A DNA stretch of 64,000 bases from Isurus oxyrinchus (taxonomy: Eukaryota). The DNA lies in contig JANJGN010000025.1 of NCBI GenBank assembly GCA_026770705.1, forward strand, positions 18,228,001 through 18,292,000, given 5' to 3'. The translations under genes were made by a program, and so were the position numbers. Shown piece by piece: positions 1,265-56,500 of the stretch (the first letter of the stretch is position 1; every line of letters starts with the position of its first letter). Below the pieces are notes generated by a model that did not search any database, was not told the DNA's origin, and saw nothing but the letters and a program-made list of their open reading frames with translations.

Positions 1265-1544
1265 ATCATCAGACACAATCTGCATATTTAAAGCAGCCCC
1301 ACCTTCTTCCTATGGAAATCCTGCTCAAAAAAAAAGGTTAATATAGGTTAACAGTGGGAAGAAAGCACATTATTTCAACTGATACCCACTCCACCCCCTG
1401 CAATTCCACCAGGTAAGTGAAGTTAAAATTCAATCCATGGTATAAGATGAAGGGTTTCAAAAGCATGGCCACTGGGACTGGTTTTACTACAGAAAAGTGG
1501 CTGTGCATGAATGCATGAAGCTGCATTAAATAAAATGGCATCAT

Positions 1545-2120
1545 TTACTGCACAGAAATAGGCTTAACAGCCCAACCGGTTTATTTTCCACTTGAGCCTC
1601 CTCCCACCTCACTTCCATGCTAGCTGTATATCCTCCTATTCCCCTCTTCCTCATTTACTTACCTAGCTTCCTCTTAAAGGCAACTTTGATATTTGCCACA
1701 GCATCAGGACCTGAACTGCATGGTAGTAAGTCCTGGATTCTAACCACTTTCTTTTACACAGTCTCAGAGTCAATAGAGAAACAGACCATTTCACCCATCT
1801 GGTCTGTGCCACCATTTATACTCCACACGAGCCTCCTCTTCTCACCCTTTTAATATATCCTTCTATTCCTTTCCCTCTCATGTGCTTGTATTGGCTCCCC
1901 TTAAATGTATCAGAACAAAGAGGTTTCTCCTGAATTTGTTTTCATTGGGTTTACTAGTGACTATCTTTTATTTTTAGCCCCTAGTTTTGGTTTCCCCTCA
2001 ACATGTGGAAACTTTCCCATGTCTCCCCTATCAAGCCCTGTCATAATTTTAAAGACCTTTATTAGGTCATCTCTCCTACCCTTTTCTAGAGATCAGAGCT
2101 CCAGCCTGTTCAGGCTGAGA
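1545..2120 (-). mobile_element. Degraded CR1 3' fragments (at least two nested pieces)
   Basis: Similar to the other minus-strand CR1 tails in the window. Confidence 0.5.
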
Positions 2121-3009
2121 ACATGAAGGGGGTGTGCAATCATTAGTTTTACTGTCACAATAGATAAAGAAAAAACAGTGTGCAAACCAAAGTGCTACTG
2201 GACTGGAAAAGAGCAACTTCTAGAGTGGGGGAGGGGAACTTGCCCAAATTAATGGAAAAGTTGACAGATGAAGCATGAGATGGTAATGGCACAGACTAAA
2301 ATATTCTAACTAGACAAAGACCAGAGTTCCAGCAGTGAATAAAGAGATTTGTTCCAAAAATAAAGTCTAAGAAGGAAATATACTAAAAATTTAGGCTAGC
2401 CAAAGAATATCAGCAAAAGAACCACAACCAAAGAAAAGAAGCAAAATAGGGAGATTAGAATGGCTGAGAGAGAGTATCAAGGAAAGGATTTTCAGCCAAC
2501 ACAGCGACTAATAGAAAAGGCTTTTCTAAGCACATCAAAGAAAGGGTGGGACCACTAAAGGGTGAAGGAGGAGAATGAAAGAACATCAGAGATGCTTAAC
2601 AAATATTTCACCTCAGTTTTTGGCAGAAGAGGCTGAAGGAATGACTAAAGGAGTATCAAAGAAGGGCACGAAGGAACAATTAATAGAATGAACTTTTGAA
2701 AGGAGCTGTTACTGATATTAACTTTATGTCCCATTAAGCTTAAGCTACTAGACCTAGCCGGTCTACAACTCCAGAATATGAAGGGAGGTTAATGATGAAA
2801 TATCAGAGCCTTCATAATCTTACAGGATTCTTTCAAGACAGGTACTGGTAAAGCCATTACTTAAGACAGACCTGGCCAACAATGAGCTGAGGCAAAACTA
2901 GTCCATTTTCTGCCCACCAAGTTGTTTTAAATCCCTCTTCCTGACTAATTAAGAGACCTATGTCACTCCTTCATTTTCCTCATGCTGATCCCCAAACAGC
3001 AGTTCCATC

Positions 3010-3360
3010 ACCGTAGAAAGTAAAGTGAAAAGAAAAAACTGATGAAGGAGAACGAGGCAAAAAGGGGAGAAATGGGAAAGTGGGAGAAGAGATGATGAGT
3101 GAAGGAGAGATAAGAAAAAGGACAGAAATAAACGTGGAGGGAGGTGAGAAAAGTGGAGCAGAAACAAAAGTGAAGATAATGAGACAAGTGAAAGAAGACA
3201 GCAGGAAAAACAAGTGGAAAGCCAAAAAAGTGAATGAAGAGCTGGAGAAACAGAAGGGAAGGAGAATGAAGTGAACTTGGAGAAGGAGAGAGGAAATAGA
3301 AGAGAACAGAATGAAATCACAAGGCAAGAACAGTGAAAATCTGAAGTGGAAAAGGAGAGA
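3010..3360. repeat. GA-rich low-complexity tract
   Basis: Purine-biased plus strand; source of several spurious ORFs. Confidence 0.7.
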
Positions 3361-3371
3361 CAGGCTTGACA

Positions 3372-3427
3372 GGCCCAATTTTAACTTTGCATAAATGAAT
3401 GGGTTTTGACTGAGTTAAAATTGGGCC
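3372..3427. mobile_element. Tiny MITE or collapsed TIR pair
   Basis: Perfect 15-bp inverted repeat GGCCCAATTTTAACT / AGTTAAAATTGGGCC. Confidence 0.55.
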
Positions 3428-4392
3428 CATCCTGGCCAATGGAGGATGTGTGAGGCTGTGGTTGGTTTTGTTCTATTTTCTATTGCCAAGGATGCCAATT
3501 GGCTTTAAGAAACTTGAGTGATCCGGTGGAGATGGGTGTGTTGTGGGGACAGGCCTTCAGAATCACAACCATCATTGTGAGTGGTTGCACCCATGGAAAC
3601 AAGAAATTGTGGCAAAGAATCAGTGATTGATGAATATCACACCTCTGTGAAAATGGAAAAGAACAAACCAAATAACCTTGTCAGGGAAGCAGCAAAACTG
3701 CTGGGGATCATAATGAAGAATAATAGCGAACATTTAAAATGTATCAGCTAATCAGTCACAGCCAACAGGTAGTTACTGAGGACAACTTTGTCAAATTTTC
3801 CATAGGGAGTGGATGTCATTTATTTAAGTCTTTAAAAATCATTGGTGAAGTGCCACACAAGAAGCTTATGTTCTATGGTATTAAAAGTGAAGTTGTGGTG
3901 ATGATCAATAGAAGGTAGAGATTAGAAATAAATGGATGCTTCTTGAGTTGATCAGGTACATCTACTGACATATTACAAAGACTCTTGTTTAGCTTGAACA
4001 TGACTGACTGGGATTTAGCATAGAGGAAATTACTCTAAAATTTGCTGTTGGTACCACATTATGGGTAATAAGCTGTGAGGAGATTGTATAGCCAGATTGG
4101 GGGAGTGGACAGAGCTGTGATAGACAAGCGTAATCGATTTTGGGAAAATTAGTTAAATGTGATTCTATTTCTCCCTGCCAAATTCCATTCCTCAATTATG
4201 CCCCTGTTCTGTGTCCCATGTTTCTTTTGCTTCCTTGATTTCTCAGTACTGTATGTCTCTATTGACTCATGCTCATATCGCTTCTCCCACTTAAATTTCT
4301 GTTTCCACTCCAGCACTTTACCTGTGTGTGCACAGTTGCTTCTGCTTTGTTTTGTTCCTTTTTAAAATGCCGTCCAATACTAACATCTTCCA

Positions 4393-7574: not shown

Positions 7575-9058
7575 TTTTTAAAAAAAATTAATTCATGGGA
7601 TGTGGGCTTCGCTGGCTGGGCCAACATTTTTCGCCCTTCCCTAATTACCCTCGAGAAAGTGGTGGTGAGCTGCCTTCTTGAACTGCTGCAGTCCATGTGG
7701 TATAGGTACATGCATAGTGCTGTTAGGAAGTTCCATGATTTTGACCCAACAACAATGAGGGAATGGCGATATATTTCCAAGTCAGGATGGTGAGTGACTT
7801 AGAGGGGAATTTCCAGGTGGTGGTGTTCCCATCTATCTGCTGCCCTTGTCCTTCTAGATGGTAATGGTTATGGATTTGGAAGGTGCTGTTGAAGGAGCCT
7901 TGGTGAATTCCTGCAGTGCATCTTGTAGATGGTACACACTGCTACCATTGTGCGTCAGTGGTGGAGGGAGTGAATGTTTGTGGATATGGTGCCAATCAAG
8001 TGGGCTGCTATGTCCTGCACAGTGTCAAGCTTCTTGAGTGTTGTTGGAGTTGCACTCATCAAGGCAAGTGGGCAGTATTCCATCACACTCCTGACTGTGC
8101 CTTGTAGATGATGGACAGGCTTTGGGGAGTCAGGAGGTGAGTTACTTGTTGCAGGATTCCTAGCTCTGACTTGCTATTGTAGCCACAGTATTTATATGGC
8201 TAGTCCAGTTCAGTTTTTGGTCAATGGTAATCCCCAGGAAATTGGGGGATTCAGTGATGGCAGTGCCATTGAACATCGAGGCGATGGCTGGATTCTCTCT
8301 CATTGGAGATGGTCATTGCCTGACACTTATGTGATGCAAATGTTACTTGCCACTTGTCAGCCCAAATCTGGATATTGTCCAGATCTTGCAGCATTTGGAC
8401 ATGGACTGCTTCAGTATCTGAGGAGTCACAAATGGTGAACATTGTGCAATCATCAGCGAATATCATCAGCGAATATCTCCACTTCTGACCTTATGATGGA
8501 AGGTCATTGATGAAGCAGCTGAATATGGTTGGGCCGAGGACATTACCCTGAGGAACTCCTGCAGTGATGTCCTGAAGATGAGATGACTGACCCCCAACAA
8601 CGACAACCATCTTTCCTTTGTGGTAGGTATGACTCCAACCAGCATAAAGTTTTCCCCCCCCAATTCCCATTGACTCCAGTTTTGCTAGGGCTCCTTGATG
8701 CCACACTCGGTTAAATACTGCCTTGACGTCAAAGGCAGTCAATCTCATCTTACCTTGGGATTTCAGCTCTTTTGTCCATTTGTTTGAACCAAGGCCGTAA
8801 TGAGGTCAGGAGCTGAATGGCCCTGGTGGAACCCAAACTGGGTGTCAGTGATCAGCTAATTGCTAAGCAGGTGCTGCCTGCTAGCACTGTTGATGACACC
8901 TTCCATTACTTTACTGATGACTGAGAGTACATTGATGGGGCAGTAATTGTGGTTGGATTGGATTTATCCTGCTTTTTGTGTACACGACATACCTGGGCAA
9001 TTTTCCACACAGCTGGGTAAATGTAGCTGAACTGAAACAGCTTGGCTAGGGGCGCGGC
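7575..9058 (-). mobile_element. 5'-truncated CR1-group LINE (RT C-terminal half and 3' tail), frameshifted
   Basis: ORF fragments AFNRVWHQG, GVPQGNVLGPTIFSCFINDL and FADDCT (RT motifs); same family as 31926-33297. Confidence 0.9.
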
Positions 9059-25480: not shown

Positions 25481-25713
25481 AAAAGTAAAATACTGTAGGT
25501 ACTGGAAACCTGAAATGAAACAGAAAATGACAGAAATACTCAGCAGGTCAGGCAGCAACTGTGGAGAAAGAGAAAGGGAGTTAACGTTTTGGATCAGATA
25601 GAACTGAGTTCTGAAGAAAATTCATCGGATCATTGATCTGAAACATGAACTGTTTCTCTGCTCCCCAAAAGCTGCCATTTCTGCTGAGAATTTGCAGCAG
25701 AATTTTGTTTTTG
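25481..25713 (-). mobile_element. Family A palindromic insertion (older, diverged)
   Basis: Same CAGCAGGTCAGGCAGCA..GTGGAGA arm in both orientations; CTGAAGA at 25611 and GAAAC at 25640. Confidence 0.7.
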
Positions 25714-28010: not shown

Positions 28011-28147
28011 CAGTTCAACTGCCTATTTTTCTCAAATTCATTCATATTCACTGCACTATTTATTAGGCACATCAGTTGCAATTCGCTTTCAACAAACATA
28101 ATATTGAGACCCAGTGATGCATCCTGAATAAGCATTTGAATCCATAT

Positions 28148-29610
28148 GTGCCCCACCGAGTGTGCCTGACTTGAGAAGAAAATGGGGTAAAATTGGTGGG
28201 CAGAAAAGAGAGATAATCTTAATTTATTGTCAAGCTAATTGGGAGTTATAAACTAATTTAAGCTTTAAGTTTCATAGGACAGCTGTATTTAAAAAATCCA
28301 TAACACTTGCTAATTAAATAAATTTGAATTCTGGTGAAAAATTCATCTAAATACTTCAACTTAAAAAAAAATTCATGCAAAAGCAGAGTGTGCATACAAC
28401 ATAGCTATTTGCACATAAGAAGTATTCTAATTACAAGTCATGTTGCCATTTTAAGCTGGCAGGTATGAATGAGCATTCAAATCAGCACTAGTGTCTCTTC
28501 TATCACTGCTGGTTTAGCATGAGAGAATCTATAGCAGTAAAGGTGTAATTTTGGGTTCCAGTCTGTTAATTCCAAGGAAAACGTTATTGGGCATTGCTGC
28601 AAATAACTTTTTTCAAACATAATATACTTTCAAGGAGTCTCCTGAATTATGAAGAAAACTAGCTTGAACATTCATGCAAAAAAAGTCAAACTTTGCCGTT
28701 AGCAACAAACAATCACATTAAATAAACTAGGAAATTATCTTTAGCATCTGCGTACTTGAGCATTTTTCTCACTATTAAACTAAAACATTGTTCTTAAAAG
28801 TATGAAGTAAATAAAAAATAAAAGTATGGGTAACTAGCTCATGGATCTGCCTACAAAACAACTTATCTACAAGGGACCCCTGCTACTTGTTGAATGCCAG
28901 AAGATGGCCCCACTAACCATTTATCATACTGTCAAATGGCTTAAAAATGTCTGCTGGCCTCCCGAGTGGTCATCCAGAACCGGTCACTGTTCCATTAAAT
29001 GGAGACAAGTGAAGGTCTAATGTCAACACAGAATTGCCCTTCCTCAGAGAGAGATACTGCTCACAGCAATAGTTTACACAATGCATCTTAACACATGAGG
29101 CCTCTCTTTGTAAATGCAACCAATCCATCATTCCACAGCTCCATAAAGTTTAAGATTTTCTTATCCACAATTGCGAAGCACTGGTATTTATCATTCTGAT
29201 GACCTTTACACACTATAGTGGGGGTATTTATAGAAACTGAAGCCTACACAACATCCACTTTGAATACAAATTTCTTTAGAAAATACAAAATGGGTAAGGA
29301 ATCAGTTTATTAACAAGCTGTAACTGAAATACAGCGAGCAACCATCAAGCAGAGCTATCTGAAACAAAAAAGAAACACATGGTCCCCTCAAAGAAACTTC
29401 AAGGCTGCTTAATGAATTCAAATTTATTTAATTAGCAAGTGTAATGGATTTTTTAAATACAGCTGTCCTATGAAACTTAAAGCTTAAAATAGTTTATAAA
29501 TCCCAATTGGCTCGACAACAAATTAAGATTTTCTCTCTTTTCTGCCCACCCCACCCCCAAACCAATTTTATCTCATTTTCTTCTCAAGTCAGGCACACTC
29601 GGTGGGGCAC
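28148..29610. repeat. Inverted duplication: arms 28148-28331 and 29414-29610
   Basis: Directly alignable reverse complements over ~185 bp with few differences. Confidence 0.9.
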
Positions 29611-29885
29611 AGGCCCATCAGTGTCAGCAGCCTTCTGGCACCTCAGCAAAGTGAGACTCGAGGATAAATGTCAATAGGGTACTTGATCATGAGAATATCC
29701 ATGCCGGAGCACTTTCCAGCAGAGGTCACTAGATAGCAATCAGGAGCACGAACCTAGCTGATATTTCTCCTCCTTAGCCAGAGGCACTGAGGATAATTGT
29801 AGCACCACCCCAGTACCACGCTTACTAAGATAAGCTAACCAGAGCACAGTCCATATGGGTCAGTAACACCACAAACCACTGGGTG
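29580..29885 (-). mobile_element. Old SINE-like repeat; related copies at ~10065-10410 (+), ~49490-49850 (-) and ~60530-60720 (-)
   Basis: Shared GGTCACTAGATAGCAATCAGGAGC...GGCACTGAGG..AATTGTAGCA...TAAGCTAAC..AGCACAG block; family not identified. Confidence 0.5.
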
Positions 29886-31100: not shown

Positions 31101-31240
31101 AAATAAAAACAGAAGAGTCATACAGACTCGAAACATTAACTCTAATTCTCTCTCCGCAGAAGCTGTCAGACCTGCTGAGTTTTTCCAGCATTTTCTATTT
31201 TTATTTCAGATTTCCAGTATCCGCAGTATGTTACTTTTAT
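31101..31240 (+). mobile_element. Family A insertion (single arm)
   Basis: GAAGAGTCATACAGACTCGAAACATTAACTC...CCTGCTGAGTTTTTCCAGCATTTTC, matching the 40094 copy. Confidence 0.75.
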
Positions 31241-31925
31241 CTTTGTCCCCTTGTTGCTTTTACTTCAAATCCACACACTATAACTTTAAAGGAACAAAAG
31301 TGTCTCAGAACAGTTCCGAACGATCCAACATACGGTTACACACGCGAAACATTGTAAGTAGCCAGTGGAACCTGCACTACATTTCTAAACTAAAGGCACA
31401 TTAAAAATAAACCAAGTGACAGGAATATACAGACAAGGTATGATTTATTTTGCAGGAGAACATAAAGTCACAGATGACTTTTAACGATCATTTAATTAGC
31501 CATTAATAATTTTCAGTTCAAACTGGAGTCATCTATTGAAATGACTTGTGCGACGGTAACACAGATATTGATGTTTTTTGGACTCGATGCTTGGTGCAAT
31601 ACTGAATTTGTTTCTCTGGGTCAAAGATTCTTCTGTAAAGAAAACTGAACTATGGGGAAAGGAAAAGGCAGTTGGCTGTGAAAAGCACAGTTCAAATATG
31701 AATGGAACAGGAGGTCAGGGAAAAAAATAAAGACACACCAAGACAAGACAGTAGTGAAAATGAGATACAGGAGTTTTGAGGATCATAGGATGGAAACAGT
31801 AAGAAGTAGAACTCAATGCAATCACTGCAGTTATAAAAGGAAAAAGGAGAAATAGTGGGAGGGCAGCTGCAATGCCTTCAAGTGAAAGATGCAGTGCAGA
31901 GGCTTATAACTTATGTTAAACTAGT

Positions 31926-33297
31926 TTTCTTTTATTCATTCCTGGGATGTGGGCTTCGCTGGTTGGGCCAGCATTTATTGCCCATCCCTAGTTGCCCTTG
32001 AGAAGGTGGCGAACGTTGAACCGCTGCATTCAATGCGGTGTAGGTACACCCACAGTGCTGTTAGGGAGGGAATTCCAGGATTTTGACCCAGCGACAGTGA
32101 AGGAACAGCAATATAGTTCCAAGTCAGGATGGTGTGTGGCTTGGAGGGGAACTTCCAGGCAGTGGTGTTCCCATCTATCTGCTGCCCTTGTCCTTCTATA
32201 TGGTAGTGGTCGTGGGTTTGAAAGATGCTGCCGAAGGAGACTTGGTGAATTCCTGCAATGCATCTTGAAGATGGTATGCACTGCTGCTACTGTGCATTGG
32301 ACGTGGAGGGAGTGAATGTTTGTGGACATGGTGCCAATCAAGTGGGCTGCTTTGTCCTGCACGGTGTCAAGCTTCTTGAGTGTTGTGGGAGCTGCACTCG
32401 TCCAGGCAAGTGGGGAGTATTCCATCACACTCCTAACTTGTGCCTTGTAGATGGTGGACATGCTTTGGGGAACCAGGAGCAGGTGAGTTACTCAACGCAG
32501 GATTCCTAGCCTCTGATGTGCTCTTGTAGCCGCAGTATTAATATGGCTAGTCCAGTTTAGTTTCTGGTCAACGGTAACCCCCAAGATCTTGATAGTGGGG
32601 GATTCAGTGATGATAATGTCACTGAAGGAGGCATGGTTAGATTCCCTCTTGGTGGAGATGGTCATTGCAATGCATATGTGTGGTGAAAATGTTACTTGCC
32701 ACTCGTCAGTCCAAGTCTGAATATTGTCCAGGTCTTGCTGCATTTGGACATGGACTGATCACTATCTGAGGAGTTGCGAATGTCACTGAACAAAATCATC
32801 AGCGAACATCCCCACTTCTGATCTTATGATGGAAGGAAGATGGTTGGGCTGCAGCCACTACCCTAAGGAACTCCTGCAGTGATGTCCTGGAGCTGAGATG
32901 ACTGACCTCCAACAACTACAGTCTTTGTGCTAGGTATGACTCTAACCAGTGGAGAGTTCTCCCCGATTCCCATTGACTCCAGTTTTGCTGGGGCTCCTTG
33001 ATGCCACATTTGGTCAAATGCTACCTTGATGTCAAGGGCAATCACTCTCAGCTCACCTCAGGAGTTCAGCTCTTTTGTCCAGGTTTGAACCAAGGCTGTA
33101 ATGAGGTCAGGAGCTGAGGGGCCCTGGTGGAACCCAAACTGGGTGTCAGGTGAGGTTATTGCTAAGCAAGTGCCACTTGATAGCACTGTTGATGACCCCT
33201 TCCATTACTTTACTGATAATCGAGTGTAGACTGTTGGGGCAGTAATTGGCTGGGTTGGATTTGTCCTGCTTTTTGTGTGAAGGTCATACCCAGGCAA
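31926..33297 (-). mobile_element. 5'-truncated CR1-group LINE, same family as 7575-9058
   Basis: ALDIKVAFDQMWHQG, QQDLDNIQTW, YKAQVRSVMEYSPLAW; colinear with the 7575 copy. Confidence 0.9.
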
Positions 33298-36939: not shown

Positions 36940-37084
36940 TCTAGTTCTGTCGAAGGGTCATGAGGACTCGAAACGTCAACTCTTTTCTTCTCCGCCGATG
37001 CTGCCAGACCTGCTGAGTTTTTCCAGGTAATTCTGTTTTTGTTTTGGATTTCCAGCATCCGCAGTTTTGTTTTGTCTTTATATA
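36940..37084 (+). mobile_element. Family A insertion with a 15-bp TSD and a near-complete hammerhead motif
   Basis: TTTAGGTTTTTTAGT at 36925-36939 and 37085-37099; AGTT-CTGTCGA-A-GGGTC ATGAG GACTC-GAAAC-GTC-AACT at 36943-36981. Confidence 0.8.
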
Positions 37085-40000
37085 TTTAGGTTTTTTAGTG
37101 TTGGATAGGAACAGGATTGACCTCCACAGCCTGTCATACCTCACTATTCATGCTACCAAATGGAAGGATGGTTAATATTGGATGGCAAAGCCTTGCTGGC
37201 ACCCATAGAGCTGGATCTCAGCAAGGCTCTGGCTTGGAGAGTCAGGGCAGAAACTGGGAGAGAGAAATGGTGCAATAGCAGTGAGCATAGATGTTCTTCA
37301 CACGCAGTGACCCATGCAGATTAAATATATTTCTACCTATACCAAGATGTGCCCAAGCCATCAGTTGTGATTTTTCCGTCTTCCCTTTTAACCCATTGGT
37401 TTCCCCAGAAGTAGTTGTACTGCAATCACACAAGAAACAATTAGCAGGAGCAGTATTCCAGTACCTCGTCCAAGGGCTTATCATGCAGCATATACCTCAA
37501 CAGAGTATACTGTTGGGATCCATCACAGTAAAGCCCCATCGTCCGATGTCCACATACATTTTTCAGCAGTGGTCAATCAGAAGCAGGAACTCTGATTGAC
37601 TTTCCCTAACTCTCAGACACTGAAGCCAGCTAGTCTGTTCATCATGAAAGAACTGGAATGGTGTGAACAGGAGTCTCAAGTTGTTATACAAATAAAAACA
37701 GCGTACTTCAACTTTTCACTTTTGGCATTAGCAAAGCATCACACTGCAGAGTCTTGTGGATTGGTAACCTTAATTATTCATTTAAAAAGTTACACCAACA
37801 TGTCAGCCAAGCATTTTGGGCTACTTGCCAAATGCATCATTGCCAGCAAATGTTTGCTGACCATTCATTACCAATGACAAGCTGTAAATAGCTTTGCTTC
37901 AAAAAGGCAATTCCCTCATCGGTTCGAAATATTTGCGAATCTTAAAAGTCTTTCAAAAAAAAGGCTAGCAGGTCACCAGTAAGGGGGAAAAAACTAAGAT
38001 AAATCTGGGGTTAGAACCGTGGAGAAGTGGTTTTCTGAAGGGTCATTCCACCCACAGAAACCTTAATTTTGTGGTGATAAAGACAAAGACAAACCCCTGA
38101 AAAACCAGACCTCAGTTCTAAAAAGGTCCCCTCTGGGAGCAAGCAACAGATAAGGGCTGGCTAGACAAGACAAAAACAGTGTGCCTGTGCAGAAAATTTA
38201 CAGCTCTGTTTTTTTAAAAAGCTCTGATTACTTAATACAAGATGGGGTTTATCAGAGCAAGGCATGCAAAATGTTTGTCTGCTATCCAGGCTAAAGTTTT
38301 GACCTCAAGCAAAAAGTGGCTGCCTTTGCTGCTGTCCAGTACCTGGTGAGCTCACAGTATAATGTCCTGTAATAGTCCAGTGGGCTAGCCTGCTGGGGTG
38401 AATACAGTGCCCCAAGCCCATTCTTAGAACACAATAAAGCTGCAGCAATTATGCAGGAAAGAATCCAACCATGTTAGATGGTGACATCTGGGCCATGCCC
38501 TTTGACACGCTCAGAATCTGCCTTGACTAAAGTCTGCTTTTGAAGCAATGAGAGACTGAAGTCTGGGGGACTGCAAAGGGAGAAGTGACACAACAAAGCC
38601 AAAAGTAAGCTGTATGATATTACAGAAACCTCCTGAAAGGCTAGTTTTTCTACCCATAGCAGCTAGACAAAAGATATTGCTGCATTTAATATATGCAATC
38701 AGTGCAAGTATATCTAGGTTCTATCAGTGCAAGTAACAACCTAACCACTAATAAAAAGCTATTAAAACAATTCCCATATTTTGCAGCACAGTAAACATTC
38801 ACAGCACACTGGGATATATTTACACCATAGCAGGCCACATTCCATTCACATTTAGGTGATTCAAACTAAGTACAGCTATTTATCTGACTTTTACTGCTGT
38901 CTTCAATTCGTTATAAAATGATCAGGTTGACATGTACTGTATTTACATTGGGCATTCAAACGAGATAGGGGTGTTGCATAGTGAGCTGAATACAATTCTC
39001 TGATGGCAGTAAGTGGCAGCAGAAGTCAAAGTTGGGAGCTTATACCTCAAATCAAATTTGGAACAAATAATTCCTCTCCCTCTACATCAAATCATTTACT
39101 GTGGATCAAGAAAGTCAAATTTGCAATTGTAGAGCAAACCAGGTTTGAGAGATTTAATTGCTGCTCCCGTTGTAAATCCTTCCACTTCTTCATGGTCACC
39201 TGATGTTTATGATTTATTTGTGTAATCCTGCCGATCTCAAGCCTTTGTTCTGCCCCCTTTGAAGACCTTCGGGTCAAACACTCCCTCACTCCTCCACCCC
39301 ACCCCCATCTCCAATATAAATGGTTCTTTTTCTACTGGGCAGTGTTATTTGGAGGTGAAAAATCTTAATCAAGATAGTACCAAAAAAGGGTAAAAGAACA
39401 ATTAAGGGTGGTCTAGAAATTCCAGAATAATTTGCAACATTATAAGCAACTCATCCAGTACAGAGTTATTGAGATCCAGCTGATATTTCAATAACTAACA
39501 TAAACCATTGTAAATAGCAGTGTTAAGATACTGGGAAAGGGAGATGATATCTGTTTTGCCCAAAATATGCCCTCAGGCCTAGAAATACATTCTCTTCTAG
39601 AATCAGCACGGCTCTATTAGTTTCCATGGGTTAACTACCATTGTGACCTTGTAATAGAATGAAAACTTATATTTATCAAACTGGTTAAATTAAGACAACA
39701 ACCTTGTGCTTGATACAAAGAACAGAACTATTTCAACATAACTACACAACTTCGTTGGCTGCAGTAACCTTCTTGTCAACAATACTTTTGCCTCCCCACA
39801 GCTGTGACCTGCTCTGTAGTTCAGTGCTGCAATGATTTAACAGTACAAAGGGGTTTGTAGTTTTACTTTTAACAAACTGTTGAATGGAAATGTGTTTTTC
39901 ACTTAATGTAGTTTATGCACAATCACCTAACTGAGAAGGGATGAAAGTTATATCAAATGAACAAATCTCAAACATTCAACCTGAAGAAGTTCGTCTTTTT

Positions 40001-40093
40001 AATGTTGACTTTTAATATTTCCTTTTAATTAAAGTTAATTTAGACTTAACTAGTTCTCAGTGTCCTCTCAAGTAACTACATGAGTAAAACAGT

Positions 40094-40303
40094 AATAAAA
40101 ACAGAAAATGCTGGAAAAACCTCAGCAGGTCTGGCAGCACCTGTGGAGAGAGAAAGAGAGTTAATGTTGAGTCCGTATGAAGAGTCATATGGACTCGAAA
40201 CATTAACTGTTTTTCTCTCCACAGATGCTGCCAGACTTGCTGAGTTTTTCCAGCATTTTCTGTTTTTGTTTCAGATTTCCAGCATCCGCAGTATTTTGCT
40301 TTT
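40094..40303 (+). mobile_element. Short palindromic retro-insertion (family A, Penelope-like end) with a 14-bp TSD
   Basis: ATGAGTAAAACAGT at 40080-40093 and 40304-40317; ~85-bp inverted arms; partial hammerhead GAGTC-ATATG-GACTC-GAAAC. Confidence 0.8.
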
Positions 40304-41938: not shown

Positions 41939-42060
41939 CTCTGATGAAGTCATACGGATTTGAAACGGTCTTTCTCTCCACTGATGCTGTTATACCTGCT
42001 GAATTTTTCTAGCATTTTGTTTTTGTTTTAGATTTCCAACATCAGCAGTATTTTGCTTTT
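41939..42060 (+). mobile_element. Family A insertion nested inside a Deu-domain SINE
   Basis: CTGATGA AGTCATACGGATTT GAAAC at 41941-41966, then the family A body; the flanks continue a SacSINE1-like sequence. Confidence 0.65.
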
Positions 42061-42436
42061 AAATAAGGTTAATGACTAATTTACAGAAAATGCAGGTCAG
42101 GCAGGATATGAGGAGAACTGTATGCTTTTTGAATAGTGCCATGGAGTTTTTTTTTACATCCACCTGAGCAGTGAGGTAGGCCTTTGTTCAACATTTCATC
42201 ACAGGAAAGCTACATAAACTTCATGCACTGTAATTACACCCTCTTGCCAGTGGTGGCAGTTTAGTGCCTCAATTTTGCATATTCCAGCCGTTTCCAAAAA
42301 AACGCTACACTACAAGTAACTTCCTGACCCGTTTTTTTCTAATCCTTTAAAATATCTCTTTTTTTGGCGGTGGTGGTAGTGGTGGGGAGTGAGGGGAACC
42401 AGTTATCAAAGCTCAACTCAATCCAAGATATTTGAA

Positions 42437-42643
42437 TAAAAGCAAAATGCTGCAGATGCTGGAAATCTGAAACAAATACAGAAAATGCTGGAAAAACTCA
42501 GCAGGTCTAGCAGCATCTGTGGAGAGAGAAACAGAGTTAACGTTTCAAGCCCATATGACCCTCCTGCAGACCCTCTGAAGAAGGGTCATAATGGGCTCGA
42601 AACATTAACTCCGTTTCTCTCTCCACAGATGCTGCTAGACCTG
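42437..42643 (-). mobile_element. Family A palindromic insertion with a degenerate 14-bp TSD
   Basis: CCAAGATATTTGAA (42423-42436) vs CCAAGACATTTAAA (42644-42657); inverted arms; CTGAAGA...GAAAC on the plus strand from 42575. Confidence 0.75.
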
Positions 42644-42990
42644 CCAAGACATTTAAAGTTGAAGGTTTACTATAATAACTTTGGTAAATTCGAATTGCAG
42701 CCCCTTCACATGACCCTCTTTCCATCACCTGGCAGTAATGTGAAGTCACTTGCAGAGAAAGTTATGAACCTAATTTTTTTTTTTAGGTCCATACAAAATG
42801 TTGCTTTGATAATGGGGTGTGTGGATAATGGAGATTCTCCATTTTTATTGATAAGGGTTGGAGACTGATAAATCATTGGTTAAAATTTGAGGTGACTGTT
42901 GAGATCTGTAGACTGTGAACACAATTGCATAAATATCCCTCCTTCAAAGGAGGAAGCTATTTCAATATTGGGTAGAGGGCTAGGGCAATG

Positions 42991-51000: not shown

Positions 51001-51013
51001 CTTTGTCTTGGAA

Positions 51014-51520
51014 CCATAGAAAAGTTACAGCACAGAAGGAGGCCATTCGGCCCATCTTGTCCATGCCAGCCCGAGGACACCCAGGTGCCCTTTCTAATCC
51101 CACCTTCCTGTACCCAGCCCATAGCCCTGCAGCTTACAGCACTTAAGGTACAGATCCAGGTACTTTTTAAAAGAGTTTAAAGTTTCTGCCTCTACTACTA
51201 ACTTGGGCAGTGAATTCCAGACATCCACTACCCTCTGTGTAAAAAAGCTCTTCCTCATGTCCCCTCTTCACCTTCTGCCACTTATCTTGAATCTATGTCC
51301 CCTGGTTCTAGAATTCTCCATCAAGGGAAACAATTTTATCCTGTCTGCTCTATCTATTCCCCTCATAATTTTGTACACCTCAGTCAAGTCACCTCTCAGC
51401 CTTCTTTGTTCTAAGGAAAATAACGCCAACCTATCCAATCTCTCCTCGTAGCTACACTTCTCTAACCCTGACAACATTCTTGTAAACCTCCTCTGCCCTC
51501 TCTCCAGAGCTATTACATAA
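51014..51520 (-). mobile_element. CR1 LINE 3' fragment
   Basis: LERGQRRFTRML...SYEERLDRLALFSLEQRRLRGDLTEVYKIMRG...RTRGH, typical CR1 ORF2 C-terminus. Confidence 0.9.
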
Positions 51521-51602
51521 CGTTTCTTCCAGCTGCTTCTCAAAGTCTGATTCCTTCTCCCACCAACGAGGTGTGAAGTACAATGGGCCATTTAGTTCAG
51601 TT

Positions 51603-51770
51603 GCTTCAACAAAAAGTCTTTTTTTTCAGCAATACTCAAGTTCTGTACTCCCAAACAGCAATTCATAAATCAGTACTCATTCGTCATTGTCTAAGTGTCA
51701 TGCTGAGGGGTGCAGGTAACCACGGTCTTCTAAGCCCTCCAACCATTCCAGTTCAGGGTAGCATTAATAT
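51603..51770 (+). repeat. Direct duplicate of 53463-53654
   Basis: GCTTCAACAAAAAGTC...CAGCAATACTCAAGTT...GTCTAAGTGTCATGCTGAG...CCAACCATTCCA present at both sites. Confidence 0.85.
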
Positions 51771-51821
51771 ACTGCTAGCAGTGTTCCATGGGCGCCTTCT
51801 ACCGCTTCATCCTGGTATCGT

Positions 51822-52224
51822 TACTGTAGATGGCGGCCTATAAAATAGCCCCATTTTTCAGGCCCAAAAATCATGTTTTTGCATATGCTCAAGTGTACAT
51901 GTCAACCCCCTTTTTCAGCTGTTACATGCTGCTTTGACATTAGTAATCAGCCTCAATTCTTCACACCACAAATGCACATTTTACTTACCAGTACCTCAGT
52001 AACTAGGCACAAGGGATCAAGCAGGCTATGCAGATTATGTTGCGAAGATGTGTGGAGTTTAAGACAAGCTCACTCTTTGCGTTGGCTGCCGATGACATTT
52101 CAAAATGATGACCACCCAAACCTATGTTGGCGGTTCACTTTTATACTCGGTGTGTAAGTCAAATGCCATTTTTGGAGGGGTTTTGAGGCTTCAAAGGTCG
52201 ACTTGTACGTCAATGTCTACTGTA
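51822..52224. mobile_element. Tc1/mariner-superfamily (MER6-like) non-autonomous element
   Basis: Ends TACTGTAGAT... and ...GTCTACTGTA with TA termini; internal TATACTCG..GTAAGTC and GGTCGACTTGTACG subrepeats. Confidence 0.5.
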
Positions 52225-52823
52225 TTCCCGTGAGCCCCAACAATGAATGTCAACACGATATCCAACTTCAAGGGCTATCACATCTGAGCCTACCCTCTCA
52301 CTGGAACATGAGCTAGAGATTACGGTATAGCACTAAGGGTCCGGAATCTTCTTCCCTAGCTTGGGTTCAACTGAGGCCAAGTGCATGGTAGGAAGAGCTA
52401 GTTCAGCACAAACCAACCTTTTTCCCGAATGATCTAAGGCTCCTCTTTTGATAAGCTTGCAAAGCTTATAGGAGAGCTGAATCGCTTGTTTTCATATTTT
52501 GCAGGCATGTCAATTTGGGACCCAAACCAATGCAACACAGTAAGAATTTTAACAGAAGCAAAAAAACAGAAGAAAAAAAATCTTAGCTACAAAAGGAAAA
52601 AAATTTTTAAAAATCACTTCACAATAACTGAGCATTTTTGTAAAGCTTCTTAATGATTGTATTGACCACAGCCTGTATGTGAACATGTTTACAAACCTTA
52701 ATACATCCTTTGAATTAGAGTTTGTTTTGGAATTCAATTTATCATCACAAAGCAATTTTGCCAATCTTGAGGCATGAGTATGCAAATGAATATATGTGCT
52801 TAAACACTGATTATGCATAAATT

Positions 52824-53523
52824 AGTATTGCTGAAAAATACTTTTTTGTTGAAGCTTCGTCTTGCACTCATTAGGACAATTCGCAAGGAAATACCAATGT
52901 CAGGGGAATCAACATACTGTATGGGAAGAGAATGCTGATTGTTTGGCAAGCAGACTTGGATTGGTAGAGGCATTGCCATAGACAATGCACCTGTGGATGG
53001 TGACTGACCATTAACTGCCAAGCATCATTTGAAATTTAAACCAGGCTTCTGGACTCTGATTAGTCAAGGCATTGCCCTGAGGAATGAATCAGTGAATGAC
53101 TGTCCCTTACTTTGTTTAGCTGAAACAGGTGCAATATGTGTACGTGATCTTTCTGCCTGCAAAGAACAGGGCCCATATACATAATATACATACACTGCGC
53201 CTGTTTCAACTAAACAAAATAAATGATAGCCATTTGCTGGTTCATTCCTCAGGGCAATGCCTTGGCCAGAGTCAAACTGACTGGTTTAAATTTCGTACAA
53301 TGCTTAGCAGTTAACTGTCAGTCACCATCCACTGGTGCATTCTCCATGACAACACCTCTACCAGAATCTACTTGCCAACCAATCAGCACTCTCTTCTCAT
53401 ACAGTATAAATGTTGACATTGATATTTTCTTGTGAACTGTCCTGATGAATGCAAGATGAAAAGCTTCGACAAAAAAGTCTCTTTTTTTCAGCAATTCTCA
53501 AGTTTTGTATCCCCAAATGACTA
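52824..53523. mobile_element. Large palindromic element with a hammerhead motif in each arm (probably inverted Penelope-like pLTRs)
   Basis: Arms about 52824-53140 and 53190-53498 are reverse complements; hammerhead motifs at 52846-52879 (minus, degraded) and 53438-53471 (plus). Confidence 0.7.
53438..53471 (+). ncRNA. Minimal type I hammerhead ribozyme motif (predicted cleavage after C53467)
   Basis: TGTC-CTGATGA-AT GCAAG AT-GAAA-AGCT-TC-GACA: complete catalytic core, stem I TGTC/GACA, 2-bp stem II, palindromic AGCT stem III. Confidence 0.7.
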
Positions 53524-56500
53524 TTCATAAATCAGTATCCATTCGTTGTTGTCTAAGTGCCATGCTGAGTGGCGTAGGCAACTACGGTCTTCTGAATTTT
53601 CCAACCATTCCAATACTCATGACTGAGCTGAATTAATCCTCTCCAGTTCAGGGTGGGCAATTTAACAATCCACAAATCAAAGTGTCTAAACATCTAGGAC
53701 ATCATGAAGAAGTGTCCCACTTTCCTAGTGTAACACAGTTAAAGAAAATACTGTAAGACAATACTGAAAAAACAAATAAAATGCCAAAATAAAGATCTCA
53801 CTGCAGTTTTCAGTCTGCAGTACCATTTCTCGTCAGCAGGTGTTGCCTTTTTGAAACAATTAAATTATTTTAAAACGGTAAAGCTAGTTTTATAGCTCAA
53901 AAAACCAACCAATTTTTCTTTTGCTTTTGTCTTCGCTTTACAGCTATTTGCAGGTCCAATTTCATTAGCAAATTTAAATAGCTCCACTTTTTTCTGAGAT
54001 CCCAATGAATAAGTATACAAGAACTTAATGCATTCTCATTCATTTGTAATCCCACTGTGGTGAATACCGAATATTAGTGATATGCCCTTTTGCTAGTCAA
54101 GCCCGCAATTAAACCTAAAAGTATAACATCCAATTTTCTTAGTACTAATTGGCTGATTAAACTTTATTTACAAAGTGGGCCAGGGCTGCAAAAAAAAAGT
54201 TTATAAATCGTCACTGCCTGTCAGAGCAGAGACAAAACTTTATCTCAGTTCACAGGGAAGAGTTAAAATCCTGGGGTCCTAGAGGTCAAAAGGCAGTGAA
54301 TGGGACAAGTGCCTTAAGCAAACCATTCCCATCTAACCTCCAGTTGGAATTTTGTGACCAGACTGAGGAAGTAAACTTTTTTGGCATATAATAAACTGGC
54401 TTGCATGTTGAAAAGAGGCTTGTACTCAATAAACCCTCGACATCATTTACCCTCAGTAAGCCTAACAACGCAATGAATTGGTTTTTCAGAAATAAAATGC
54501 CAAAATAAAGATCAAAAACAACTTTTAATAAAGAAACAGTAAACACAGGTGCCTGGGTTCAACAACATGCTTTCAAATTCCAGAGACTAGTTTGAGTGAA
54601 AAATGAATATAACATAAGATGATATTTCCTGAGCTGTATCTTTACAAGATAGAGGGGTGTGGAGCAAAATGATGGATTTTTTTAATACTCATTATTTGCT
54701 TTACTTTTCCATCTAATTTTTGTTTTTTATTGTTTTATTCTGAAAACTTTACACAATTAATCATATACTCTACTACAGAAGTTGAGTTATTACAGTTTAT
54801 AACTTTATTCTCCAAACAGGTTTACAAATCATGGGCAGAGCAGCTGGTCCAGCTGAACTGTAACTCTTGATTTTCCATATTTTTTTTAAGATTAGGCAAT
54901 TTTTAATCTTATGGTATAAAGGAATACTGTTTGAGCTTCGACAGATATCTACAAGTGTTTTTTTAAATCCACATAATACTGAATCAGAAAAGCCTAACCA
55001 TTAACTAGGGGAAGAATTGGACCCAGAAGGCAGAGCTTGTACAAAATGAGTGTCTGTCTCTGTAAAATTACATTTACTTTGGTTTGTAATGATCGATCTA
55101 ATTTGTCTCTTTAACATAGCCAAAATAGCTACTTCAGGAAAGATAAATAACATACAAAACACTGGAATAGGAACAGAATCCAATCAATGATCAGGTTTTG
55201 TTCTACTCTCCTGGGTCATTGTTCTGGACAGTTTTTTGCCTGGTTAAATGGTCAGCTGCCAGCCACCTGCTATGGCTGGAATGGCCACAGATGGTCAGTT
55301 GTCCAGTTAGTAGTTAAGAATGTGCTGTTGTTCCCACATCACACGGGGATTGAGGCCCTTGACAGGGATCAGTGAATCTAAGCTCATCACCTGGCAACAG
55401 TCAAGGGCCACAGCCAAACAGTGACTGAGGTCAGACTTAATAATTCTGCAATAACTTACATTTATAGATCATTCAAACCAAGAATTTAAAATGTAATAAC
55501 ATTCAGATATTATTGTTTCTTTTCTTTGCTGAAGGATCACATTTTAAATGCTGATTATATTATTTAAGTAATAAGAATAGCAGCTCCAATAATATGCTAA
55601 AAATATTCAAAACTCTTACATTTGAAAGCACTGAACAAAACTACAAAATCTTTCTCAAGCTTATAAATAGACAAAGATTGGTATTGAACATATTCTTAAT
55701 TGTAGCCGAACATCCATTAGTAAGTGTGTACTCATGTAAACTAGAAGTGGTCTAGTGCTTACCTCCATCACATCAAGTCTGGAACTTTACAGTGGCCTGT
55801 GAAACATTTTACTGCAAGTGCACAGAAACCAACTTAAACCTTTACTGCAATCCAGTTCTGCACAAGCTGGAACAAACCTTGGCTCTGATTTAGCACAATT
55901 TGATAAAAGCTCGTAATGGTTCTGCAGAAACCAGATTTCAGATCATTTCAGGTGGTCTGGAAGCAAAAATGCAGAACAACTGTGCTGACGGATTGTGTTG
56001 ACAGAGAAGGTTGTGTAAATAATTCACAACACACAAAAAAAATCTCTTGAGGAAGGGCTGATGGTAAATGATACAATGTGATACAAAAGCCTTTTTTCTA
56101 AGTCACGCTATTTTCGTACCACTAAATTAAGAAAAATAATTTTAAATTATTTCTGCAGCAACACTAAAACAGAGATGTAATGGAGCATTAACAGGAAGGT
56201 ATAAGTGTTCAACAGTGGTATTTGCAGATGAAGGGAGAACACTTCTGCAGTTTGTACAGTGACAAGTTATTGTCCCAGACAGAAGAACAAACAGATAATA
56301 TCCTGATTCAAATCCTCCCACTTTTAATGGAACCAAGGGAGGAAAGGAATTAAATATACTGTTCAAATTCATTAGCAAATCCAATTACACTTATGCTGAA
56401 AAGCAGGTACAGCATTCAAAAGTTTGAACAATGATACAGTAGCAGCAGTCACTTCACCATGTGAGTAAATGCTTTTAAGTTTGTTTACACCTTCACAACA

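Follow-up and report, generated by a model that had tools for sequence, protein, structure and literature searches.

Insertions of endonuclease-bearing (EN+) Penelope-like retroelements (PLEs) are described, in the available parts of Craig et al. (2021, PMC8557442), as mostly 5'-truncated, often with an inverted and likewise 5'-truncated copy at the 5' end, and with a tail of 30–40 bp on one side only. The accessible text of Arkhipova et al. (2013, PMC3846280) gives head-to-head inverted pLTRs as the usual arrangement, attributes it to self-priming, and reports that the pLTR has a TATA box and that target-site duplications (TSDs) measure 8–10 bp. Minimal hammerhead ribozymes are a second hallmark: the portions of Cervera and De la Pena (2014, PMC4209133) at hand describe pairs of them on opposite strands, 100–700 bp apart, including in Schistosoma mansoni, and Penelope-13_HM in Repbase carries a hammerhead on each strand. 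According to the excerpted literature, minimal hammerheads built in this way have weak activity, and that only in dimeric form; one of nine Xenopus hammerhead dimers cut. In PAc, the Poseidon element of Anolis carolinensis, the start of the ORF lies within the hammerhead, ribozyme cleavage requires protein, and insertion in vitro proceeds without need of cutting; two RT start sites bound the tail, which is explained by the internal one (Frangieh et al. 2024, PMC11167929, as far as its accessible sections go).

The locus described here lies in a window of 64,000 nucleotides, the whole stretch of DNA that was analysed. With EN+ PLE insertions, as the available parts of PMC3846280 and PMC8557442 present them, it shares a head-to-head inverted 5'-truncated copy, a tail at one end, a TATA-like box together with a hammerhead, and a candidate target duplication. 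It differs in that no internal gene remains, that the tail measures 27 nt rather than the 30–40 given in the excerpts of PMC8557442, and that the candidate duplication measures 13–21 bp rather than the 8–10 bp of PMC3846280, again as excerpted. We read the palindrome at this locus as a decayed head-to-head pair from a high-copy family, likely a dead-on-arrival insertion of an EN-bearing PLE whose hammerhead would cut only as a dimer in the parent's tandem transcripts, and we put the probability of this reading at roughly 0.87. The likeness is at the level of EN+ PLEs and not of one clade (Poseidon, Neptune, Nematis or Hydra), and the locus itself is most likely dead. A Penelope-derived family in this genome had been proposed in an earlier note on this DNA, and the architecture, the high copy number and the published layout all support it.

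The inverted repeat spans 52824–53498 (BLASTN of the region against the window: 76% identity, 697 columns, E 1e-137). When the arms are aligned globally, 259 of 311 bases are identical, the mismatches comprising 36 transitions and 16 transversions, with 14 of the 52 of CpG type, and the fold of the palindrome has a z of −37 against 20 shuffles. The palindrome of about 700 bp with reverse-complement arms that the earlier note described is borne out by these three measures, but the extent given there was too small, because the unit also takes in the tail, to about 53525, and the flanking direct repeat. From the centre outward, each arm opens with the final part of a reading frame, followed by a 99-nt internal repeat that holds CCAAT-type boxes; next come a TATA box, the hammerhead and a short 3' stretch. 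This order makes the palindrome two copies joined head-to-head (Table 1). The inverted copy is 5'-truncated, as in EN+ PLEs, and the two 5' ends are unequal with filler between them: the right arm starts some 30 nt closer to the 3' end of the element than does the family match of the left arm, which begins at about 53173, with three family contigs ceasing to match at 53171–53173.

Table 1. Features of the palindrome and its surroundings, in window coordinates.
Feature	Coordinates	Strand	Basis or detail
Third, partial copy: 3' part of hammerhead, tail, and about 110–130 nt of the DNA following the right arm	51603..51765	+	BLASTN, alignments
Candidate target-site duplication, left copy	52808..52828	+	Last 5 nt overlap the left arm end
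Left arm: inverted, 5'-truncated, tailless copy of the element 3' end	52824..53173	-	BLASTN, arm alignment, family contigs
Broken hammerhead relic	52847..52878	-	G5 to A (52872), two As of core/stem III missing, G1.1 to A (52850)
Reading-frame end, 37 codons to stop	53060..53173	-	Frame also open in right arm and P0002
Centre junction: short filler including part of a 9-nt tandem duplication (53175-53192)	53174..53186	.	Sequence
Right arm: 5'-truncated copy of the element 3' end	53187..53498 (approximate)	+	Alignment
CCAAT (53379) and TATAAA (53405), 33 nt before hammerhead stem I	53379..53410	+	Candidate promoter, from sequence
Minimal type I hammerhead motif, 34 nt, palindromic stem III	53438..53471	+	Descriptor match
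Tail, 27 nt, right end only	53499..53525	+	Left copy ends at the 53498 equivalent
Candidate target-site duplication, right copy	53518..53538	+	First 8 nt overlap the family 3' end

Besides the boxes listed in Table 1, two more CCAAT-type boxes lie in the 99-nt internal repeat; the left arm has both, and in the right arm each is short of 4 nt. These right-arm losses fall at 53267-53270 and 53363-53367; the left arm has both stretches, and family contigs have the second. CCAAT boxes thus occur in both arms, whereas the TATA box is intact in the right arm and broken in the left.

The right-arm hammerhead consists of a 4-bp stem I, CTGATGA at 53442, a 2-bp stem II with a 5-nt loop, and GAAA, followed by the palindrome AAGCTT of stem III at 53461-53466 and by C17 at 53467, after which the cut is predicted. 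An ATG at 53445 lies inside this core. The core features of a type I minimal hammerhead (CUGANGA, GAAA, UH, with stems I and II) are found in the right arm, and the complete type I core that the earlier note placed there stands as written, at the coordinates in Table 1; the set is incomplete in the left arm. With both strands searched, the minimal type I descriptor has a single match in the window, against a chance expectation of 0.083 per 64 kb from 60 first-order Markov simulations, and a palindromic stem III accompanied a chance match in none of the 60. A motif so rare by chance argues against a DNA-transposon MITE or a chance fold-back that happens to hold a hammerhead look-alike, a reading we find scarcely credible: it would account for the long inverted arms, and other inverted-repeat elements do occur in the window, but the ends are asymmetric, the tail is one-sided, and family contigs match single arms. 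Returning to the PLE insertion, the left motif fails the descriptor because of the two substitutions and the two lost As listed in Table 1, so that the hammerhead claimed for each arm is present in one arm and broken in the other. The two letters missing at 52855 of the left ribozyme are present in 28 contigs of sequencing run X2 and in 20 of run X5. The Rfam hammerhead models, named earlier as a check, gave no match over the window (E ≤ 1) or over 53400-53530 (E ≤ 10) to a motif that is only 34 nt long.

The pair closing stem II, G10.1-C11.1, is the conserved one in the published material available. It is A-U in the right arm; the left relic has G-C, as does one contig from run X22. Because this contig has G...C like the left arm, the A-U pair of the right arm is likely decay, and its C-to-T change falls at a CpG. 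The family as a whole likely has the G10.1-C11.1 pair, which the right copy lacks. The earlier reading of stem II, AT/AT in one arm and GT/AC in the other, both pairing but possibly through decay, is better taken as decay than as covariation, given the X22 contig, the conserved pair and the CpG site. None of the places that vary among family contigs falls in the hammerhead core, among the 40 of 308 that were listed.

Compared with metazoan PLE hammerheads as described in the available parts of PMC4209133, the right-arm motif shares type I topology, a short helix I, a palindromic helix III and loop 3, and a dimer-type design, and the two opposite-strand motifs lie about 560 bp apart, as in the dual motifs of the same excerpts. 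An extra base, which these sections place between positions 9 and 10.1 of the metazoan hammerheads, is absent here. Helix II has two pairs at this locus, compared with at least three in all 78 published PLE hammerhead rows compared (44 + 34, drawn from parts of the sources and including no cartilaginous fish). Opposite-strand pairs of minimal hammerheads are already known; what is unusual here is the two-pair helix II.

The palindromic helix III at 53461-53466 would permit a dimer, and computed energies agree with a dimer-type design: the monomer hammerhead is placed at +6.7, the double hammerhead at −2.1 and the duplex at −5.7 kcal/mol, with another two-molecule fold lower than the double hammerhead, at −7.8 kcal/mol. 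A dimer between the motifs of the two arms is ruled out because they lie on opposite strands, facing away from each other. In the computed fold of a read-through RNA, 31 of the 34 hammerhead bases are paired with the left arm in a long hairpin. The ribozyme at this locus is predicted to be inactive, because it has no same-strand partner, has lost G10.1-C11.1, and would have those 31 bases sequestered in read-through RNA.

The two ends of the palindrome differ. At the equivalent of the tail end (51655/51657), three sets of family contigs, numbering 159, 124 and 184, diverge, sharing about 8 further letters before continuing into unlike AT-rich DNA, and the 3' end of the family coincides with the end of the tail. 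The two copies of the candidate target-site duplication are identical at 18 of 21 positions; this direct repeat, first spotted by eye, has a score of 13.5 that was reached by 0 of 300 shuffles (best shuffle, 13) and by 0 of 300 random flank pairs.

A third, partial copy upstream (Table 1) is 82.7% identical to 53463-53612 over 150 nt and starts inside hammerhead stem III. A start at the ribozyme cut site was considered and rejected, since the third copy already matches from 5 nt before that site, at the equivalent of 53463. This copy also has a weak 29-nt internal repeat, both units of which show the same two-letter change relative to the right arm. Local duplication explains the third copy provided that the direct repeat is a genuine target duplication; the copy probably arose long ago as a local duplicate of the junction on the right. 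It sits beside a high-copy repeat at 51010-51570 (depth up to 670,000), which may be a CR1-type LINE tail, and a mid-copy repeat at 51850-52210 (depth about 1,400-3,800).

Past the supposed duplication, depth in the bin 53575-53665 is 2.7-5x that of single-copy DNA, which is unexpected for a unique flank, and the frame from the core ATG is nearly open through the DNA following the right arm. For these two reasons the DNA past the tail may be element sequence, and the locus is a PLE relic on either reading. In its fullest form this would make 53526-53660 the element's own 5' coding region and the right arm the upstream pLTR of a once longer element, with the third copy a separate insertion and the direct repeat a product of chance. 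Besides the raised depth, it would account for a frame that runs 63 codons from ATG 53445 with a single stop, at a CpG, and that is open in the third copy too. We nevertheless hold it to be unlikely, as the loose ends of the family sit at the tail end, neither null reaches the score of the direct repeat, the third copy breaks off where the right arm does, the window contains neither a downstream pLTR nor a remnant of RT, and a frame open over that length is reasonably likely by chance alone.

With PAc, as far as the accessible text of PMC11167929 describes it, the locus shares a start codon inside the hammerhead, an element end shortly past the ribozyme, and an AT-rich target. The PAc RT start is given in the same sections as 111-118 nt into the ORF and without target homology, whereas the ends here lie at about +54 and about +81 from the ATG and, unlike PAc as so described, both junctions at this one locus show short matches to the flank.

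Family data come from contigs of 4 of 24 sequencing runs, placed on 51300-54000 at 80% likeness, with about half of each DNA run read; at this extent of reading, bins 53666-53847 were without cover, to which no meaning is attached. Over 52938-53483, summed contig depth, which is not a copy number, reaches 138,000-924,000 in run X2 (organism A), possibly derived from the same sample as the window, against 34.9 on the single-copy flank, and 110,000-676,000 in run X5 (organism B) against about 43. In both runs the depth exceeds that of the flank by a factor of thousands, which shows a dispersed multi-copy family, as is a feature of EN+ PLEs, and suggests that it has thousands of copies. Two further runs, guessed to be RNA, hold related family contigs only (406 and 70), with no bearing on this locus. 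A search of the literature returned no description of this repeat family, which may well be catalogued already.

This very high depth is confined to about 350 nt, as would be expected of a non-autonomous PLE-derived family, retrozyme-like or SINE-like, that moves as a fixed unit (those 350 nt or the whole palindrome) by using PLE enzymes in trans; no long parent was found by our searches, and non-LTR retrozymes are reported from one cartilaginous fish with a mean unit of 363 bp (bioRxiv 10.64898/2026.07.22.740005, in its available parts). Those retrozymes, in the same parts, share with this locus the type I hammerhead, an origin from a pLTR, a similar unit size and occurrence in a cartilaginous fish, the probable host here. 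They are, however, described there as head-to-tail tandems with a same-strand ribozyme in each unit, whereas this locus is head-to-head with one intact motif. BLASTN finds no head-to-tail tandem of hammerhead units within the window, and since this is the defining trait, the earlier label of retrozyme-like is left unsupported. A fixed unit also fits poorly with arms that differ in their 5' start and have filler between them, with arms that begin with the end of a reading frame, and with a depth that drops toward the centre instead of staying level, no contig piece among those listed crossing it. We regard this explanation as quite improbable and retain a truncated PLE insertion.

The arms decayed separately, because at 12 of 14 arm positions with a variant (among the 40 of 308 variable places listed) the other arm carries the family letter. 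Decay amounts to about 8-9% per arm, and the CpG observed/expected ratio of the host, 0.25, is vertebrate-like. The putative LINE tail at about 51010-51560 would point to a cartilaginous fish as host. The left junction is spanned by a contig of 1256 nt from organism B that shows 16 differences (1.3%), which makes the insertion older than the split between organisms A and B. If the arms began identical and rates were equal, the divergence of 17% between the arms, against 1.3% between the two organisms at this junction, would make the insertion roughly ten times older than that split.

Survival of a complete right motif with both stem II pairs intact, and of the right-arm TATA box, in the face of this decay could point to a structured RNA or enhancer recruited by the host and held under selection, such as a long hairpin, a small-RNA source or a regulatory ribozyme. 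The mismatches, however, are rich in transitions and CpG changes and private to each arm, the left ribozyme and left TATA box are broken, and G10.1-C11.1 is lost on the right; an Rfam miRNA-type match at the centre scores 31.9 where the gathering score is 76. Host recruitment is in our judgement very improbable, and simple decay of a PLE insertion remains the preferred account.

What is left of a gene is short. The left-arm frame has 37 open codons from GPVLCRQK to the stop at 53060, and this frame is also read in the right arm. Among 1.84 billion representatives scanned, two matched the remnant, P0002 and P0001. P0002, a 63-aa JGI fragment, shares the frame with 67% identity over 33 residues (E 7.9e-6); P0001, a tandem-repeat protein, was dropped as a chance match. 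Since the codons at the start of each arm are the last of a frame found also in the independent fragment P0002, the earlier suggestion that the family is non-coding is not supported. In several of the protein searches, including those of Pfam and of the 1.84 billion representatives, the query began with 5 residues from the junction filler.

In the available alignment of GIY-YIG endonucleases in PMC8557442 (Fig. S2), several clades end in Pro, two residues, Leu, Asn. The remnant fits this Pro-x-x-Leu-Asn spacing, but a Cys replaces the conserved terminal Asn, so that the match is only positional. We consider the remnant likely to stem from the parent's gene, where it would have closed the GIY-YIG endonuclease portion. 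Such an endonuclease ending occurs in flatworm PLEs.

Searches for the parent gene returned little else. The remnant has no Pfam match and 0 matches in the PDB, and its Atlas matches are all under 0.9; protein searches gave no long relative (no match in one, 0 of 100 candidates in a second, P0002 alone of 2 in a third), and in two protein-based locus scans, with 148 and 16 candidates, none was confirmed. Across the protein searches, Pfam, PDB and Atlas, no gene for an RT or a GIY-YIG endonuclease was linked to the element, and we infer the link of the element to RT and GIY-YIG. At the DNA level, the hammerhead core pattern had 0 matches in metagenomes, and pattern scans gave 0 in viral contigs, 0 in prokaryote genomes and 0 in phages. 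An upstream 20-mer had 3 metagenome matches, all taken as chance and none extending beyond 20-21 nt. A motif search of the PMC8557442 supplement, covering the first 400 characters of its long sequences, returned nothing relevant.

The following sequence of events, modelled on published PLE work, would produce the observed arrangement. The parent's GIY-YIG endonuclease would have nicked AT-rich DNA, and RT would have begun at an internal site of the RNA, about 58 nt beyond the point of ribozyme cleavage, at what is now the tail end, and stopped early, after about 340 nt. The same event may also have yielded the second, inverted, tailless copy, through self-priming or a template switch, after which repair would have left the target duplication. 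In an intact parent, transcription of the next tandem unit would start immediately ahead of the ribozyme, driven by the CCAAT and TATA boxes, and a pair of same-strand ribozymes could join through the AAGCTT palindrome.

The window holds other repeats. A second, unrelated family has six copies (40086-40278, 42436-42644, 25481-25713, 31110-31244, 36946-37093 and 41941-42061), two of which fold back as short palindromes and hold hammerhead-like cores, at 42575 and 41941; it is likely another PLE family. Inverted repeats at 28147-28331 and 29414-29611, about 190 nt long, 89% identical and about 1.1 kb apart, resemble DNA-transposon terminal repeats. A LINE-like 1.4-kb repeat is present in two copies (7587-9000 and 31934-33297, 81% identical), and an open frame of 153 codons within it (32030-32491, minus strand) has no Pfam match.

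The locus itself carries small weight, being one old copy among thousands with a layout already published for PLEs. A bolder and more doubtful proposal, which we put forward tentatively, is that the family represents an undescribed PLE lineage with one of the smallest natural hammerheads (34 nt, two-pair helix II), kept in thousands of copies at 33 nt past a TATA box and overlapping a start codon. Such a ribozyme might cut as a dimer or with the aid of its own protein, and the junction matches might reflect target-annealed priming, unlike PAc. The family is in any event a natural test of the minimum size of hammerhead helix II. How PLEs make inverted halves and tails is still without experimental explanation, and the two end points 27 nt apart, together with the variable centres, offer a large fossil record of that process.
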